Positions 12,486 through 43,866 of a stretch of 64,000 bases of DNA are shown here, piece after piece. The translations under genes and the position numbers were made by a program. The notes under the pieces were generated by a model. That model did no database searches. It was not told the DNA's origin and was given only the letters and a program-made list of their open reading frames with translations. The stretch's first letter is position 1. Each line of letters starts with the position of its first letter. Origin of the DNA: Patescibacteria group bacterium (GTDB taxonomy: Bacteria > Patescibacteriota > JAQUNI01); the NCBI GenBank assembly GCA_028717685.1, contig JAQUNI010000004.1, positions 8,599 through 72,598 of the forward strand. The letters run 5' to 3'.

Positions 12486-12652
12486 GAATTACGAAATTTT
12501 CATAGAATCATAAAACATTCCTCACCTTGACCTGCGGAAGGGTTTAATAAATGACTATTCTCCCACCCCCTCCATCTCCCCCTCGGGCAGGGGGAGAGCC
12601 GCTCCCACCCCTCCTTTCTCCCCTTCTGGCGGGGGAAGTGAGTTGCGTAATT
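12486..12652. repeat. GC-rich MITE family A, copy 1, with TIRs (GAATTACG...CGTAATT) and CTCCCCCTCGGGCAGGGGGAG hairpin core
   Basis: Shared modules with copies at 24.57, 26.7, 33.3, 42.9, 45.65, 46.9 kb. Intergenic between the histidine phosphatase and surE. Confidence 0.7.
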
Positions 12653-15498: not shown

Positions 15499-17142
15499 TT
15501 ATTTAGCCTCAAAAATCAAAATCACATCCAGCCAAGAAGGCGCGCGCGGCGGCGCAGGCTCCTCAATTTCCATTAGACGAAAGTTAGCTTGTAATTTTTG
15601 GCGCAAGATTTCATTCAGGGGATTATCTGTTTTATAGAGTACCCAAATCTTGCGACCGGACACACTTTGCGTTTTTAGCTGCTGGACTAAATCTTCCGCC
15701 TCTTGCGCATATTTGTTTTCTTTCTTGAGCATATCCTTCAGATTTTTCCAACCAGTATGAATGCCCATCTCCGCGGGATAGTAAAACAAACTGAATTTTT
15801 TTTTGCCTTGATTCTCGCGGCTGAAATAATAATCAAAAGTGGCACCGGACAGGTCTGTGGCAATAACCATATCCTGATCACGTAAGCGGTTGAGTAAAGA
15901 GAGGCTTATGGTTTTGTCCGTGCTTTGATATTGGCGAATAAGATCTTGTTCTGCTACCACTTTTTTGGCAGCAAAGATTACAAGAGTAATGGTTAAAATC
16001 GCAAGCAGGAAACGGCTTCTGATTTGGGCAAAGAAATAAGCTAAGAGTAAAAGAAAGGCAGGCAAGACAATTATTTCATAGCGTCCCGCCACATAAATAG
16101 GTTTAAACTTTGAAACAGCGAAGGCCGCGATTAAGGGAAAAATAAAATATAGGACGAGACTGGTCCATACTACGGTTTTTAGCTGATGGTCGCGAGTAAG
16201 ATGCTTCTCGTCTAACTTCGGGCAGGATATTTGGAGTTCCCGCAGAAAAAATATATAAAAACCTGCAATAATCGCAAAAATAAGGTAAGGCCAAAAAACA
16301 CCGAAGGTGAAATATTTAAAACTTTGCCCTAAAATTTCAATTTTTACTTTACTTATCCAGGCATTTACTCCCATTTGGCTTTGATGGATGATGATTAGAA
16401 TATTCGGCACAATTAATAACAGGATCAGGCATATTGTTCCCAAGATTTTTTTAAAAGGCAAAGGATATTTTTTGAGACGAAAAATAAAAAGGCTTAAAAT
16501 TTGACTAGCCAGAATTAAAAAAATCCAAGGATGGGTATAGATGCCGGCAAGCGTGGAAAGAAGATAAAAAATGTAAGCGGAAATTTTATCCCTGCTCGCC
16601 GCCCTATGAGCTCGTGGAGCTTCACTTTCGCGCGTGATTTTCCAAAAAAAGTAAAAAGAGGCAAGGCCTAAAAAAGCAGCGAGAGTGTAGGGTCGAGTTT
16701 GGGCGCCAAACCAGAGCAGGAAATAGCTGGTGCTAGCGAGGATACTGGCCAGCAGGCCTGCTTTTGGACTTTGAAAAATTTCCTTGGCGACTTTAAAAAT
16801 GAACCCGATTAAAACCAAAGCCATACAGGCGGAGAAGCCGCGCAAAGCCGTCTCACTATTTCCCCAGATCAAACTCCAAATTTTCATTATATAGATGTAA
16901 AAAAGAGGGTGGCCATCCATAACTGCTCGGCTGTAAATTTGAGGAAAAGGCAGCGCGATAATTTTGGCTACCGCCGCTTCATCCAGCCAGAGAGCCCTTG
17001 CGCCGAGGTGGTCAAAAATAAAAAGCGCAGCCAGGACAAGGCAGGCGAGCAAGCCTAAAAGAGGCTTATTTTTTATTATTCTCAATTTTAAATCTTTCAC
17101 GCGGGAGGACAAATTGTTCAATAACTTTTTGATTTTGGGCAT
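15499..17142 (-). CDS. GT-C fold membrane glycosyltransferase (ArnT/PMT, GT39/GT83-like)
   Basis: Polytopic N-terminal membrane domain with a 'LWLDEAAVA' DE motif in the first loop, and a soluble C-terminal domain. Its first 77 nt overlap the upstream gene, so the start is uncertain. Confidence 0.55.
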   Translation of the reverse strand: MPKIKKLLNNLSSRVKDLKLRIIKNKPLLGLLACLVLAALFIFDHLGARALWLDEAAVAKIIALPFPQIYSRAVMDGHPLFYIYIMKIWSLIWGNSETALRGFSACMALVLIGFIFKVAKEIFQSPKAGLLASILASTSYFLLWFGAQTRPYTLAAFLGLASFYFFWKITRESEAPRAHRAASRDKISAYIFYLLSTLAGIYTHPWIFLILASQILSLFIFRLKKYPLPFKKILGTICLILLLIVPNILIIIHQSQMGVNAWISKVKIEILGQSFKYFTFGVFWPYLIFAIIAGFYIFFLRELQISCPKLDEKHLTRDHQLKTVVWTSLVLYFIFPLIAAFAVSKFKPIYVAGRYEIIVLPAFLLLLAYFFAQIRSRFLLAILTITLVIFAAKKVVAEQDLIRQYQSTDKTISLSLLNRLRDQDMVIATDLSGATFDYYFSRENQGKKKFSLFYYPAEMGIHTGWKNLKDMLKKENKYAQEAEDLVQQLKTQSVSGRKIWVLYKTDNPLNEILRQKLQANFRLMEIEEPAPPRAPSWLDVILIFEAK

Positions 17143-18766
17143 TGCGTTTTAAGAAAATAAGGGTGTAATCATCAACAAAGACTGGCGCCCAAGCAGGATC
17201 TTCAACGCGCTCGACTAAAAATTTTTGCGTCCAAGGAGTGAGGTCGTGATAAGCAAATACGATCGCGTTAAAGTTGTATTTTTGTTCTTGCGCTTGCCAG
17301 ATTTCTTCTTTTTCCTGCATAGGAATATAGACTTCTTTGAAGAAAGAAGCGGGATAAGCCTCTGGTCGGTTATCAACGAAGATACGTTCCCGCGGATAAA
17401 GGTGAAAGATTAAATAACTTCCAATATCGTAATTATTAAAAATAGGTCCTTTAATTTTTTCCTTTTGCAGAAATTCCGCCGCCGCGCTATTTCCTGGGGA
17501 AAGTCCTAAACGGACATTATAATTTATTTGGCATTTGGGGTCGGATAGAAAGAAAATCAAAATAAAAATAGCAGTGAGAACATATGCGATTTTAAAGGAC
17601 CAAGAATGAAATGAAATCCGAGAGGCAAGAATATTCTTTAAGTTAATCGCCAAGATAGGTAAAGTAAAAAGCCCAGAAAGCGTAAAATTGCGCAAAGCCC
17701 ACCAGCCCATAAAACTAAAAATCGCGGCAAGGCAGAAAAGGGGCAATGAAAATTTACCCTCCTTCGCCGAAAGCCACGGCTGTAAGCCCGTGGATATAGG
17801 CGAAGAGGGTACCCTTCCGTAGCTCCGAAGGAGCGAAGGAGGGTAGGCTTCGGAAGGGTTTCGTCGCTGAAAGATTAGTAAGAGAGCAAAGCTTAAAATA
17901 AGCAAGCCGAAGATGATTTCAAAGAGCAGGAGATTAGGATCTTGCAATCCGTATTTTTCTAAAAAAATCACGGATTTATTTTCTAAAATCTCATAGCCAT
18001 AATTTTGAAAAATTTTGAACGGATAGATCGCCCCTTTAGCAAAAAATGGGTTAATAAGGCTTGCAAGGCAAACCAAAATTAAGATGAGACCGATTTTTTT
18101 GATTTTTTGGGGGGAGAAAAAAACAAGCCTTTCTAATAAAAAAACAGCGATTAAAACCGGTCCTAGGAAAAAATAAATATGGGTGTTGACCCAAAGGATT
18201 TGGATGATCGGCAGGAGAAAAAGCCATTTAAAGGGAAGCCGACCATTTCGGTATTCCCAAAGCAGCCAAAAAAACAAACTTGCGAAAAGATAGGTGAAGA
18301 TTTCCGGCCGCGCTTCGCCGCGCTCCGCAATGAGGGGAAGGACTAAAAAAGAAACGATGCTCGCAAGTCCTAATCCCGCCTCTTTTTTAGTTAGAATGAA
18401 AAAGAGCGTGAAAACGATAAAGCTGGCAACAACATAGAAAAGATGTAGGCCAGTAAAACCCGTAAATTGCAAAACAAGGTAAAAGATTACCGCGCTGCCC
18501 CAATGGTGGTTTACAAAGGGGAAATCAGGATAAGTGTAAGAATAATAATTTTCAAAAAGATGTTGAAAATTGCCTTGCAGGATAAGCTCGCCATTTTTCA
18601 GGTGCCGCCCTAAGTCTGCCGTGGTTAAATCAATGGGGCGAATTAAAAAAAGAGAGTACCAAGTAAGCAAAAGAAATAAGACAAAAATAAATTTCTTTTT
18701 TTGAATAAAGAAATCTGTAATTTTGGGCATTGTTTTTGGACTTATATCTCTATCCCTATTGGGCAA
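17066..18766 (-). CDS. Polytopic membrane protein, probable GT-C-type glycosyltransferase. Contains an in-frame GC-rich palindromic insertion.
   Basis: 566 aa, more than 10 TM segments. Residues 'NPSEAYPPSLLRSYGRVPSSPISTGLQPWLSAKEG' are encoded by a GC-rich palindromic block (about 17755-17880) unlike the flanking AT-rich coding sequence. Confidence 0.5.
   Translation of the reverse strand: MPNRDRDISPKTMPKITDFFIQKKKFIFVLFLLLTWYSLFLIRPIDLTTADLGRHLKNGELILQGNFQHLFENYYSYTYPDFPFVNHHWGSAVIFYLVLQFTGFTGLHLFYVVASFIVFTLFFILTKKEAGLGLASIVSFLVLPLIAERGEARPEIFTYLFASLFFWLLWEYRNGRLPFKWLFLLPIIQILWVNTHIYFFLGPVLIAVFLLERLVFFSPQKIKKIGLILILVCLASLINPFFAKGAIYPFKIFQNYGYEILENKSVIFLEKYGLQDPNLLLFEIIFGLLILSFALLLIFQRRNPSEAYPPSLLRSYGRVPSSPISTGLQPWLSAKEGKFSLPLFCLAAIFSFMGWWALRNFTLSGLFTLPILAINLKNILASRISFHSWSFKIAYVLTAIFILIFFLSDPKCQINYNVRLGLSPGNSAAAEFLQKEKIKGPIFNNYDIGSYLIFHLYPRERIFVDNRPEAYPASFFKEVYIPMQEKEEIWQAQEQKYNFNAIVFAYHDLTPWTQKFLVERVEDPAWAPVFVDDYTLIFLKRNAQNQKVIEQFVLPRERFKIENNKK
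17755..17880. repeat. GC-rich palindromic element (family C-like, cttcgccgaa / ggcttcgg / cccttccg motifs) inserted in-frame within a CDS
   Basis: Nested inverted repeats 'ccacggctgtaagcccgtgg' and 'cccttccg...cggaaggg'. Composition contrasts with the surrounding gene. Related motifs occur at 21.4 kb and 43.1-43.5 kb. Confidence 0.5.
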
Positions 18767-21346: not shown

Positions 21347-21476
21347 GCCCCGTAATAAATATGGGATAAACTCCAGCGGGAATCCAGGATTAGTGCTATT
21401 AACCTGGATCCCCGAGCCTACTTCGCCGAAGCAGGGCTTCTGGCTGCGAAGGCTGAATCGGGTCGGGGATGACAGA
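21347..21476. repeat. Palindromic MITE-like element (family C) with terminal inverted repeats (tgtcattcccg...cggggatgaca)
   Basis: Two nested hairpins: cattcccgc/gcgggaatc, and atccccgagcc...ggtcggggat enclosing cttcgccgaag. Sits between ychF and the plus-strand kinase pair. Confidence 0.6.
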
Positions 21477-33235: not shown

Positions 33236-33341
33236 CATACGATGACTATTCTCCCACCCCCTCCCCGCCCGCCTCGCCTGAAGCGAAGCGATGGCGGGCA
33301 GGCATCTCCCCCTCGGGCAGGGGGAGTGAGTTCTGTAATTC
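33236..33341. repeat. MITE family A copy with the inserted module CCGCCCGCCTCGCCTGAAGCGAAGCGATGGCGGGCAGG
   Basis: gatgactattctcccaccccctcc...ctccccctcgggcagggggagtgagttctgtaatt. The same inserted module occurs at 44.9, 47.0 and 58.0 kb. Confidence 0.65.
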
Positions 33342-40928: not shown

Positions 40929-42743
40929 TTATTTTATTACTTTACAATAAAAGATTCGTTCTGTGTGTCCATCAGTATCGCTTTTGCCTGTTGTAAATGC
41001 TTTATAATCCCTTTCAAAAATATCAACATTGCCACGAGTTTTTAATATATTTATAATTCGCTTATCACTAATGCGAGCATTTGATCTTCCGTCCTTAGAT
41101 TCGCCGGTGTTATTATAAGAAACCAAAATATGTTTACAGTTTGCGTTCGAAATTAAATCAGCAAATGCCCTCGATGCTGACTGTAGACAGTAATCACTTT
41201 TAATATGTGACCTATCCATCTTTTTTGCTTTGCCATACACTGATGGTTTTTCCCAAGTAGCAAGGTTTTCTAGAAGGTGATAGGCGTCAGAATACTGGCG
41301 AGAATTATAAGGTGGATCAATATATAAAACGTCACACCTTATTTTTTTGATAAGCTGATTTGCGTCTTTTTTATATATTTCATTATTTGAGTTATTTTCT
41401 GGCTCAAAATCCGGAACCAAAAGACGTAGTGGTTGGATTGTGTCTAGTTTTTTTCTGTATGCATCATAGTGGCCAACTGTATTTGCCACCTTATCAACTG
41501 CGTATAGTAATGTAGTAATCAAAACAGCTCTCTCATTATCGCTTTTTGCAATCTCGTCAATTTTTTCTCTGACAGCGCCGATTTTGCGAGCGTTCTCTAA
41601 GGTGAAAAAGGTATTGCCGAAATGTTCAGAAAAATAATTGTCATTGTGCACTTCTAAGTTATTGAGCAGCTCTATTTTCTTTTCTATTTCCTTAAAATCA
41701 ATTTTCGAAGTTCCCAAAAAAGATTTTAATGGTAGATAATTACTTACTAAAAAGTCGTTGGCAATAACTTTTATATCTTTTTCATTAAATCGTTCACCAA
41801 CAACACCAGTACCCGCAAAAATATCACAGAACACACCGAAGCCGTTGCATTTTTCGTTGACAATATCCTCAATAAGACCGAGCAGTTTATATTTATTTCC
41901 TAAAAATCTTCTATTTTGCAGCTGGAAACGCCCCGACTTAATTCTACTTTCAGGGTAAAAATATACCTTATGTATTTTTTTTATTTCTGGGGTATAAGTT
42001 GGTTGTGCAGTTTCTAATAGATCGAAAAGGGAATTTTGTACACCATCAGAAATATAATGCGTTACTTTACTATCCGAGCTTTGTATTTCAGAAAAAAAAC
42101 TGTGAGTGTCATTTTCACTAACAATAATAAAATCAATAACATTCACACCCATTATTTTACCTGCTTCGAGAATTTTATTCACGACTTCCATATCTTGTTT
42201 ACTGGGGGTAACATCTCCTGATGGGTGATTATGTAACAAAATGATCCCAGCCGCTCGTAACTCGACGGCGGGGCCAAAAATTTCTCGTGGATGAATAATG
42301 CTTTTATCTAATATACCGATAGATATAATTTCTTTTTTCAGTAGCGCATTTCTTGCGTTGAGATATAGACATACCAAATACTCTTTTTTCTTGTCTCGTA
42401 TGTCGGAAGTTAAAGAAATCGCATCTTGGGCGGATAAAACAATGTTATCTTTTGGTTCCAATTCTTCATAAAATCTTTTTATTAACGCCAGAGCAGAAAC
42501 AATTTGTAGGGCTTTTGCCTCTCCAATTCCAGAAATTTTCAAAAGATCATCAACTATTATGTCTAAAAATTTATTTCCGAATTTTCTGATTATCTGTTCG
42601 GAAAGTTGTTTAACATTTTTTCCCTTAATTCCGCTTCCAATAAGAATAGCCAAAAGCTCGCTTTTAGAAAGAGCATCTGGACCTTTTTCTAAAAACCTTT
42701 CGCGTGGCCTATTAATTTTTGGAATGTCTTTAAGCTTTCCCAT
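40929..42743 (-). CDS. Fusion protein: RadC-like JAB/MPN domain (N-terminal) plus Dam-like alpha-class N6-adenine DNA methyltransferase (C-terminal)
   Basis: RadC N-terminal HhH 'ELLAILIGSGIKG' and JAB motif 'IILLHNHPSGD'. Then Dam-family motifs 'FLGNKYKLL', 'FCDIFAGTG', 'VLYIDPPYN'. Confidence 0.7.
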   Translation of the reverse strand: MGKLKDIPKINRPRERFLEKGPDALSKSELLAILIGSGIKGKNVKQLSEQIIRKFGNKFLDIIVDDLLKISGIGEAKALQIVSALALIKRFYEELEPKDNIVLSAQDAISLTSDIRDKKKEYLVCLYLNARNALLKKEIISIGILDKSIIHPREIFGPAVELRAAGIILLHNHPSGDVTPSKQDMEVVNKILEAGKIMGVNVIDFIIVSENDTHSFFSEIQSSDSKVTHYISDGVQNSLFDLLETAQPTYTPEIKKIHKVYFYPESRIKSGRFQLQNRRFLGNKYKLLGLIEDIVNEKCNGFGVFCDIFAGTGVVGERFNEKDIKVIANDFLVSNYLPLKSFLGTSKIDFKEIEKKIELLNNLEVHNDNYFSEHFGNTFFTLENARKIGAVREKIDEIAKSDNERAVLITTLLYAVDKVANTVGHYDAYRKKLDTIQPLRLLVPDFEPENNSNNEIYKKDANQLIKKIRCDVLYIDPPYNSRQYSDAYHLLENLATWEKPSVYGKAKKMDRSHIKSDYCLQSASRAFADLISNANCKHILVSYNNTGESKDGRSNARISDKRIINILKTRGNVDIFERDYKAFTTGKSDTDGHTERIFYCKVIK

Positions 42744-42915: not shown

Positions 42916-43118
42916 CATCTTATAATTTCGGCACTTCGTCCCTTCTTCGTCGCTTCGCTCCTTAAGAGTTCCTCAGTGTCTTTAATTTTCATCTAACTAT
43001 ATAGTAGGTGGTCAAAGATAATACCCTTCTACTTCGCTACGCTCAGTATCAGGGACTTCTTCTTTTTTATATAGAGCCGGAGGCACTGATGAGCCTCCGT
43101 CTCAAAGGAGGCGAAGAA

Positions 43119-43132
43119 GTGCTGGGGAGGCA
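43119..43132. repeat. 14-nt exact direct repeat of the tRNA-Gln 3' end (att-like site)
   Basis: gctggggaggcagg is identical to 43505-43518, i.e. tRNA positions 61-74 in reverse complement. Brackets the GIY-YIG gene. Confidence 0.55.
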
Positions 43133-43177
43133 GGTGTCCTTCGCCTGCGGCTTCGGAGCACCTAATTACCTCCAAAA

Positions 43178-43438
43178 CTATTCCTTCTTCAAGGCTTCGG
43201 GAATAAGTCTTTTATATGTAAATGCTTTACCTGAACCAGTTTTTAAATATTTTTCAAACAACTTTGCCTTTTTAATTGTTGAAAATCCACAATACCAAAC
43301 AAGTTGCCAAGGAATAAAAGGTTTAGTTGATTTAGATAAGCCTTGGTTGTGTTCAGTATATCTTTTTTTGAGATTGTTTGTATAGCCAAAATAAAGCTTT
43401 TTTGATTTTAGACTATAAAGAATATAGCAATAATACAT
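43178..43438 (-). CDS. GIY-YIG nuclease domain protein (YhbQ/UPF0213-like)
   Basis: 'YYCYILYS...LYFGYTNNLKKRYTEHN' GIY-YIG motifs, 86 aa. Confidence 0.7.
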   Translation of the reverse strand: MYYCYILYSLKSKKLYFGYTNNLKKRYTEHNQGLSKSTKPFIPWQLVWYCGFSTIKKAKLFEKYLKTGSGKAFTYKRLIPEALKKE

Positions 43439-43502
43439 ATTTGCCTCTTATTAAACTTTATCAGATTTGAGGCGTAAGCCATTCCGAAGCCTTGGCGAAG
43501 GA

Positions 43503-43576
43503 TGGCTGGGGAGGCAGGATTCGGACCTGCGATGATAGGTTCAGAGCCTATTGCCTTACCGCTTGGCTACTCCCCA
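43503..43576 (-). tRNA. tRNA-Gln (anticodon CUG), CCA encoded
   Basis: UGGGGAG acceptor pairs with CUCCCCA. D-loop AGCGGUAA. Anticodon loop CUCUGAA. T-arm GCAGG-UCCGAAU-CCUGC. G73-CCA. Architecture matches E. coli tRNA-Gln. Confidence 0.85.
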
Positions 43577-43866
43577 ATGAAAAGTTAAATCTCAAAAGTA
43601 AAAAGTTAAAAGTAAAAAATATAATTTTAAAATTTTACGGAATAAGGAAATTGTGAATCATGAATTTCATTTTCTTCACTGCAAATTATACCAAATTTTT
43701 GCCTTAAAGTAAAGATTTCCCGAGCTGTTTTAGGGAATAAAATAGCCCTCTGGCGATTAAGAGGGCTTTACCCACTTTAGAGTTGGAATTTTAAGATTAT
43801 CTCTTTAATTAAACCCCTCTCTAATTTCCCCTTGTCAGGGGAGAGGTTTGATTCTCCATTTAAAGG

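Follow-up and report, generated by a model that had tools for sequence, protein, structure and literature searches.

How does a GC-rich palindrome come to lie in frame within the gene of a membrane protein, and what has it become there? The question is raised by positions 17756-17860 of a 64,000-nt stretch of contig JAQUNI010000004.1 from a Patescibacteria group bacterium (hereafter the window), in which the first-pass annotation had recognized a GC-rich palindromic element inserted in frame into a gene, in the manner of the Rickettsia palindromic elements (RPE). Inverted repeats, folding z-scores, GC content, the open reading frame (ORF) and empty-site alleles all agree with this proposal. 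Sequence comparisons show the segment to be one copy of a modular palindromic DNA element, GC-rich and non-autonomous, and they indicate that its family is dispersed in Candidatus (Ca.) Doudnabacteria and in many other lineages of the Candidate Phyla Radiation (CPR)/Patescibacteria. We consider it very probable that a selfish palindromic element resides in this gene, and the explanation as a whole, namely, an RPE-like selfish DNA element that is translated as a disordered loop and was moved in trans, appears likely.

Over ~20 kb, the window is ~89% identical to contigs binned as Ca. Doudnabacteria. Protein P0001 of contig L004, 94% identical to the host protein, contains the same 35 extra residues, whereas exactly these 35 residues are missing from P0002, a ~94% identical protein of a Ca. 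Doudnabacteria sister lineage recovered in three independent assemblies (L001-L003), as well as from all ten more distant homologs that were aligned. The ortholog alignment, proposed as a check by the first-pass annotation, shows a clean 35-codon insertion. In the DNA, the sequence of the empty allele is AAT CGC CAT/AAA TTC and that of the window CAG CGA CGA/105 nt/AAA TTT (slashes mark junctions); alignment with L001-L003 places the element at 17756-17860 (plus strand), that is, over 35 codons of the minus-strand gene, with boundaries that are ambiguous by at most 2 nt because of an AA microhomology. The extent originally given, 17755-17880, was right as to the place, with a right end that lay ~20 nt too far. 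The filled allele is present in two independent and mutually diverged assemblies, the window and L004, and the L004 insert differs from that of the window by six substitutions, two of which break stem pairs.

A homologous segment in distant orthologs had been named at the outset as the sign of an ancestral loop rather than an insertion. A segment that partly answers this description does exist: the ortholog P0003 (73-76% identical) carries a 13-codon (39-nt) insert, which interrupts the gene at the very codon boundary that the element occupies in the window. The core of this insert matches that of the window at 35 of 35 positions, whereas the 94% identical ortholog of L004 differs at four of them; in L005-L008, the core is identical to the window over 35 nt. 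Sequence identity of this kind identifies the P0003 insert as a short form of the same element, and not as an ancestral protein loop.

A second polymorphic element, ~128 nt long, is located ~1 kb upstream of the focal site, at 9867-9994 of L001 (and also in L002-L004), exactly on the stop codon of an exoIII-like gene; it is a mosaic of the family's unit C, described below, and other modules, and its site is empty in the window (at ~18742). The focal site is filled in the window and L004 and empty in L001, whereas the exoIII-like site is filled in L004 and L001 and empty in the window; the three genes are all ~94% identical to one another, and their informative sites divide 18/14/24. The two polymorphisms fit no single tree, so that recombination, sorting of ancestral polymorphism, precise loss or parallel gain is required. 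These presence/absence patterns suggest that the element family has been recently active near the host gene.

The element stands out from the window in composition (~63% GC vs 39.9%) and in fold. Nested within 17740-17880 are inverted repeats at 17762-17779/17788-17805 (I1; 18 nt, 83%), 17755-17767/17833-17845 (13 nt, 100%) and 17811-17823/17847-17859 (I5; 13 nt, 92%), and this 141-nt stretch folds far better than dinucleotide shuffles on both strands (z = -4.9 and -4.7; 0/200 shuffles equal); the repeats lie where the first-pass annotation had placed them. Hairpin A (17756-17810, plus strand), recognized from repeat I1 and the folds, consists of an outer stem ACCCTCC(T)TCGCC/GGCGAAGAGGGT, a purine-rich internal loop and an inner stem CCACGG/CCGTGG. 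In hairpin B (17811-17859, plus strand; repeat I5), the outer stem ACCCTTCCG/CGGAAGGGT encloses a near-invariant core at 17811-17844 (ACCCTTCCGTAGCTCCGAAGGAGCGAAGGAGGGT), which can fold alone. With 105 nt and two adjacent hairpins, the element has the size and fold typical of RPE (a palindrome of ~100-150 bp forming a long hairpin).

The host ORF (17066-18766, minus strand) encodes 566 aa and stays open across the insert; we take 17066-18730 (554 aa) as the gene, because the orthologs begin at MPKIT. More than 2500 homologs of the protein were found, essentially all in Patescibacteria/CPR, and searches against Pfam and NCBIfam gave no match. An AlphaFold2 model built on 13 sequences (predicted TM-score, pTM, 0.82) has a polytopic fold with a C-terminal soluble domain, and its Foldseek matches are STT3, AglB, PglB, DPY19, ArnT and AftA (E from 5e-7 to 1e-3), all pointing to the GT-C fold. 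A PMT_2-type protein and a GT2 glycosyltransferase are encoded downstream. Fold and gene context together justify the original label 'membrane glycosyltransferase-like', which thus rests on the structural similarity to STT3/AglB/PglB/ArnT and not on Pfam or NCBIfam.

The inserted peptide, NPSEAYPPSLLRSYGRVPSSPISTGLQPWLSAKEG, corresponds to residues 302-336 of the 566-aa ORF, between an Arg codon and the Lys codon AAA, and its 35 residues include 6 Pro and 7 Ser. Residues 302-337 have a predicted local distance difference test score (pLDDT) <50 and lie in the short loop between the predicted transmembrane helices 277-301 and 341-356; the insertion is hence, as in RPE, in frame at a position compatible with the fold, and the first-pass description of ~35 hydrophilic, Pro/Ser-rich residues between hydrophobic segments was accurate. 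Between the window and L004, the insert has accumulated four non-synonymous and two synonymous changes (ratio of non-synonymous to synonymous change, pN/pS, 0.75) and the gene outside it 32 and 66, respectively (pN/pS 0.13), with pS of 0.07 in the insert vs 0.20 across the rest of the gene. The inserted peptide appears to be under little selection. A promoter and terminator scan of the host gene revealed nothing above chance. The element would be transcribed and translated with its host gene, adding a Pro/Ser-rich disordered loop of 35 residues; the host protein would tolerate this loop, and the element would confer no function of its own.

To what, then, does the insert belong? One genome per species, metagenome contigs and viral contigs were searched for a 19-mer of the core (GAAGGAGCGAAGGAGGGTA). 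The 19-mer matched 12 genome contigs, nine of them from CPR, and 17 metagenome contigs, whereas the viral contigs, scanned with two patterns, yielded no match. The contexts of the matches define a full form of ~170 nt (range ~165-250 nt) with three parts: hairpin A, which starts TTT/ACCCTCCTYCGC; hairpin B, which holds the core ACCCTTCCG[T/A]AGCTCCGAAGGAGCGAAGGAGGGT; and unit C, which ends ...CCACGGGCGTAAGCCCGTGGAGCTTCAC and has a terminal stem-loop resembling that of A. Some copies (L022, L026 and L030) contain, nested within them, smaller hairpin modules with the pattern CCG[A/T]AG-stem-loop-CGAAGG, and the family also has a short form of ~36 nt. The window copy corresponds to A and B, and is probably immobile because it has no unit C.

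A covariance model built on A+B recovers the focal copy at 17755-17863 with 130.6 bits, 14 strong copies in the loci fetched from the 19-mer scan and three more in the loci of element-bearing proteins. Within the window, blastn found no further copies and the model gave only weak matches, at 43.44, 46.99 and 44.84 kb. Over A+B, the window copy is 94.5% identical to the full form in L019 and 95.5% identical to that in L043, the latter two sharing 93.6% identity, and these loci are unrelated: the L019 copy adjoins an S8 peptidase gene in a Doudnabacteria metagenome-assembled genome (MAG) that derives from the metagenome to which the empty-site contig L002 also belongs, and the L043 copy forms the C-terminus of a TM1506 protein. 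Taken together, copies at unrelated loci that are 93-95% identical, the absence of the insert from P0002 and the distant homologs, and the colonization of other coding sequences agree with the RPE-like behaviour suggested by the first-pass annotation. A census based on element-encoded peptides is too insensitive for inserts of 12-35 aa; a concatenated six-frame peptide query returned seven matches at E up to 1, and the 40-aa peptide of the window, compared with 1.84 billion representatives, matched seven short ORFs that are probably spurious.

Two occurrences of the family lie in unusual settings. In two contigs of Vicinamibacterales (Acidobacteria; GC 0.61-0.64), at L016 5100-5179 and L024 35-155, a 28-nt core, CCGTAGCTCCGAAGGAGCGAAGGAGGGTA, is found in a short intergenic spacer, which reflects either horizontal spread or an unexpectedly wide distribution. 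In L009 (Peregrinibacteria; 330-490), a duplicate of the 5' half of tRNA-Ile stands beside an intact tRNA-Ile, and two short-form modules break into the D-arm of this duplicate; the elements thus also enter non-coding RNA genes or pseudogenes.

The search for the same element in other coding sequences, also proposed at the outset, was successful in other genomes, where copies are found in alanyl-tRNA synthetase (AlaRS), a NUDIX hydrolase, a PD-(D/E)XK protein and the TM1506 protein; the window has the single copy. The NUDIX hydrolase copy forms an internal segment of the protein, and the copies in the PD-(D/E)XK and TM1506 proteins form C-termini. In L032, ~70 residues of a 693-aa membrane ORF, a putative single gene with an insert, derive from a copy; this ORF has no match in the PDB or Pfam. 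In all gene-embedded copies found, the host frame remains open and the polarity is the same, the gene reading the strand complementary to the one drawn here; the downstream junction on the gene strand, ...GCGAAGGAGGGT/AAA, is hence read A-K-E-G/K. On the strand read by genes, 37 of 42 frames (14 copies) are free of stop codons, compared with 11 of 42 on the other strand, near the ~31% estimated for this composition. That the gene-read strand is nearly stop-free in all three frames explains which insertions survive, and copies with a length that is a multiple of three can persist in this gene-dense genome owing to this property. At three independent loci (L014 1289, L019 3664, L022 1272 / L032 6995), the end of a full-length element coincides exactly with the stop codon of a convergent gene, the TCA of the element's terminal ...CTTCAC serving as the TGA stop of that gene.

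The AlaRS of Paceibacteria-type CPR provides a second case with filled and empty alleles. A clean 12-residue insert, SPVRSSEGAKEG, is present in 2 of 120 homologs, with a third carrier on metagenome contig L027, and its DNA is the 36-nt short form TCGCCCGTCCGTAGCTCCGAAGGAGCGAAGGAGGGT, identical in three hosts with flanks that differ synonymously. The filled allele reads TTGC/insert/AAAAA and the empty one TTGC/AAAAA, with zero duplicated bases. In a neighbour-joining tree from which the insert columns were removed, the carriers fall into two separate clades, each with insert-free sisters, and L027 belongs to one of these. The possibility that a recombination tract surrounds the insert was considered and rejected, given that the flanks among carriers are no more alike than those of filled-versus-empty pairs. 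The Asn codon just after the insert is AAT in the carriers L013, L027 and L040 and AAC in the empty L038 and L039, a pattern which could be due to chance, to the element end or to a very short conversion tract.

The junctions hint at how such an element might move. Of 16 copies, 14 have TTT directly before the ACCC end, where the background frequency is 4.7% (p = 3e-17), and the T-run pre-exists in the empty site in all three cases with an empty allele. In the window, this run occupies 17753-17755 (plus strand), abutting the ACCC end, and on the gene strand it is the Lys codon AAA already found in the empty allele. Possible duplicated bases number 0 in AlaRS, at most 2 in the window and at most 4 in L005, with no constant target-site duplication. 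Within an element, the terminal stem of A is similar to that of C, and a change in one is accompanied by a change in the other; the clearest case is L037, where A has CCGACCAAC...GTTGGTCGG and C has CCGACCAGC...GCTGGTCGG. Full forms, although not the window copy, which is without the C end, thus bear similar subterminal hairpins at both ends, and the family uses a short specific target, the TTT, without duplication; both are traits of the IS200/IS605 or repetitive extragenic palindromic (REP) type. We suggest that the ACCC end would be joined to a pre-existing T-run without a target duplication of fixed length, and that the element might move as DNA, by means of a trans-acting enzyme that acts on hairpin DNA. 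Similar end hairpins, a short target, no duplication and seamless empty alleles lend plausibility to single-strand 'peel-and-paste' transposition of the IS200/IS605 or REP-RAYT type, which we nevertheless regard as a possible mechanism to be held tentatively.

The same junctions bear on a classical miniature inverted-repeat transposable element (MITE), which would be cut and pasted as double-stranded DNA by a DDE transposase, with terminal inverted repeats and duplication of a TA-rich target. The ends of the element are indeed imperfect inverted repeats (ACCCTCCTTCG vs the reverse complement of the other end, ACCCTTCCG), TAAA flanks the L005 short form on both sides and occurs once in the empty site, and the window junction permits an AA duplication. 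However, the filled/empty AlaRS pair is without duplication, the apparent duplication varies from 0 to 4 nt between sites and is always the A-run itself, and no insertion sequence (IS) with matching ends was found in the 384 kb examined (the window and the loci), all of which makes a MITE an unlikely explanation.

Conservation of the core raises another alternative, namely, that a functional nucleic-acid structure, such as an RNA motif bound by a protein, an element controlling translation or mRNA stability, or an antisense RNA, was co-opted in the gene. The core of ~34 nt is nearly invariant across very distant lineages, and it contains a symmetric GAA/GAA or GUA/GAA internal loop and a GAA triloop, which are stable motifs recognized by proteins in RNA and DNA. 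Compensatory changes support hairpin A, in that all nine pairs with changes on both sides fall in its two helices, a number reached in 0/500 shuffles; hairpin B is nearly invariant and therefore neither supports nor contradicts its own structure. The gene-sense strand at the junction also displays a perfect Shine-Dalgarno-like AAGGAGG, and the low synonymous change in the insert noted above would be in keeping with a constrained structure. By contrast, wobble pairs show no strand asymmetry, the L004 insert tolerates two broken stem pairs among its six substitutions, close relatives manage without the insert, and copies occupy many unrelated contexts. Rfam at the gathering threshold recognized only tRNAs in the window and eight loci, and a full-length copy searched at E up to 10 gave only sub-threshold matches, far below gathering scores. 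A co-opted functional structure is, consequently, quite improbable in our estimate.

Even less support can be found for an insert that is not translated, being either cut from the transcript or bypassed by the ribosome like the 'byp' GC clusters of Magnusiomyces mitochondria. The hairpins are very stable and some mitochondrial GC clusters are bypassed in translation (PMC8811140), yet the lengths of all four gene-internal copies measured against an empty site, 105, 39, 36 and 36 nt, are multiples of three, and no ribozyme or intron family matched the element in the Rfam searches. An element that was removed or bypassed would have no need to keep the frame open or to lie in a nearly stop-free orientation, and we therefore judge this alternative very improbable. 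An ancestral, lineage-specific protein loop or an assembly artefact, for which the extra residues at the same position in the 73-76% identical ortholog might be invoked, is hardly conceivable and already refuted by the 93-95% identity to non-coding or differently placed copies elsewhere, the ~94% identical sister lineage precisely without the segment, and the filled allele in two independent, diverged assemblies.

Several observations weigh against a translated, RPE-like selfish element moved in trans. The case for translation derives from the frame and the stop-codon data, and the difference in pN/pS between the insert and the remainder of the gene falls short of significance (p = 0.18). The TAAA on both sides of the L005 short form can be read as a 4-nt target duplication. 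Copy number is low, with one copy in 64 kb. When the ORFs within 4 kb of 18 copies were compared all against all, no transposase-like ORF or recurrent neighbour protein emerged, only element-derived pseudo-ORFs and YchF, and tblastn with two TnpA sequences (IS200 and IS608) produced no match in the 384 kb. Under a tentative reading of the weak GC skew, the orientation in the window would oppose the IS608 rule, and the asymmetry of G-U vs A-C pairs (12 vs 7, p = 0.36) indicates no strand preference. Finally, occupation of the same site in the GT-C gene and in AlaRS could result from old insertions followed by repeated precise loss, or from recombination, instead of repeated insertion.

Other palindromic sequences of the window are related to the focal element to different degrees. 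The first-pass annotation had equated its composition and palindromic nature with those of intergenic elements at 21.4 and 43.1-43.5 kb; what they share is the signature CCG[A/T]AG-hairpin-CGAAGG, and they are not copies of the same element. A regex scan found six matches of the signature CCG[A/T]AG...CGAAGG in the window vs 0.35 expected from shuffles, four of them convincing. Intergenic hairpin modules with CCGAAG...CGAAGG are located at 21426-21452 (plus strand), at 43138-43156 (minus strand), on one side of a small GIY-YIG ORF, and at 43484-43501 (plus strand), immediately 3' of tRNA-Gln. The covariance model finds a weak match of 18.7 bits at 43440-43524, and the 30 matches listed up to E = 10 do not include the 21.4 kb element, which is related to the focal one at the motif level only.

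The two modules around 43 kb flank an 86-aa GIY-YIG nuclease ORF (43178-43438, minus strand), which itself has tRNA-Gln (43503-43576, minus strand) on one side and, on the other, a 13-nt repeat of the 3' end of that tRNA (CTGGGGAGGCAGG near 43121), so that 43100-43580 looks like a tiny cassette integrated at a tRNA end. The GIY-YIG ORF was considered as a mobilizer of the palindromic family and rejected, as it is near no other copy of the element. At 43083-43122, a hairpin GGCAC-CTGATGAG-CCTCC...GGAGG-CGAAGAA-GTGC displays hammerhead-like or C-box-like core words and a purine-rich internal loop; a hammerhead reading of CTGATGAG...CGAA at 43.09 kb was rejected, given the simple-hairpin topology and the lack of an Rfam match. 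A second, more abundant intergenic family of GC-rich repeats, (A)TTCTCCC[A/T]CCCCCTCC...CTCCCCCTCGGGCAGGGGGAGTG, is present at 12560, 26702, 33251, 42872, 45666 and 46971, with all six copies on the plus strand, opposite to the genes, a nested module GCCCGCCTCGCCTGAAGCGAAGCGATGGCGGGC at 33267 and 46987, and related pieces in the sister genome (L001 16390-16544). A 604-aa ORF (40929-42743, minus strand) encodes a RadC-like JAB domain fused to a D12-class N6-adenine DNA methyltransferase.

Selfish palindromes that survive inside protein genes are rare, being represented by the RPE of Rickettsia and the GC clusters of mitochondria. A full-text literature search retrieved, within the literature covered, no paper describing such repeat elements in CPR/Patescibacteria; what is new here is a previously undescribed palindromic family of CPR, selfish palindromes inside genes being already a known phenomenon. 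A separate family in CPR means that the phenomenon recurs in small, gene-dense, AT-rich genomes, and it accounts for some puzzling low-complexity insertions in CPR proteins. Annotators should be aware that spurious ORFs are called over such elements, and the elements offer presence/absence markers for strain-level population genetics, as illustrated by two polymorphic insertions within 1 kb. The conserved core, the T-run junction and the recurrence at the same site of AlaRS pose the question of the mobilizing enzyme. A bolder view, which we consider doubtful, is that CPR harbour, in this family, a class of hairpin DNA not described before, seamless and site-selective ('homing-like') in its insertion, with nested modules built on a core conserved among lineages of phylum rank, a strand open in all frames, repeated entry at the same position of essential genes such as AlaRS, and a mover outside the known transposon families.

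Compared with known systems, the family resembles classical MITEs such as Correia/NEMIS, ERIC, BOX and RUP (PMC10969869) in being small and non-autonomous, with inverted-repeat ends, an ability to form hairpins in transcripts and occasional in-frame fusions. It differs from them in having no constant target-site duplication and no parent IS in the 384 kb, in its nested modular architecture and in the one strand that is nearly stop-free in three frames. With the miniature derivatives of IS200/IS605 and with REPs and bacterial interspersed mosaic elements (BIME), which depend on Y1 HUH TnpA and RAYT enzymes (PMC5027513, PMC6006769), it shares similar hairpins near both ends of the full form, insertion beside a short conserved target without duplication, and seamless presence/absence alleles that fit precise excision. 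The GTAG beside a hairpin in the core recalls REPs, whereas many copies have GAAG instead; the window and the loci yielded no gene for TnpA or RAYT, copy number is low, and the family resides inside genes, whereas REPs are extragenic.

The parallels with RPE are broader. According to Ogata et al. 2000 and 2002 (via PMC10969869), RPE are palindromic repeats of ~100-150 bp that have no ORF of their own and occur between genes as well as in frame within housekeeping genes. In the same respects, the two families are alike: palindromic, of similar size, without an ORF, and found both between genes and in frame in unrelated housekeeping genes. Both would be translated as extra loops compatible with the host fold, and in the accounts considered a mobilizing enzyme is identified for neither. 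Yet the hosts are CPR/Patescibacteria rather than Rickettsia, the focal element is GC-rich in an AT-rich genome, and its family is made of nested, exchangeable hairpin modules with a 34-nt core common to very distant lineages. Since the host is a relative of Ca. Doudnabacteria, we treat the element as an analogue of RPE and not as a member, the likeness being drawn from behaviour.

By analogy, its behaviour matches even more closely that of the GC clusters in the mitochondria of yeast and other fungi (PMC8811140), although the host excludes membership in that group. The AG/TAG flanks of the yeast clusters are taken as target duplications (PMC8811140), in contrast to the T/A-run junction without constant duplication seen here, translational bypass has no evidence in its favour for the focal element, and one host is a bacterium, whereas the others are mitochondria. 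Nevertheless, both are short GC-rich palindromes, modular and shuffled, in compact AT-rich genomes; both are mostly intergenic and yet enter protein genes in frame (var1 in the mitochondrial case) and are polymorphic for presence and absence; and both recur at the same sites, with a conversion-like mode of spread (PMC8811140).

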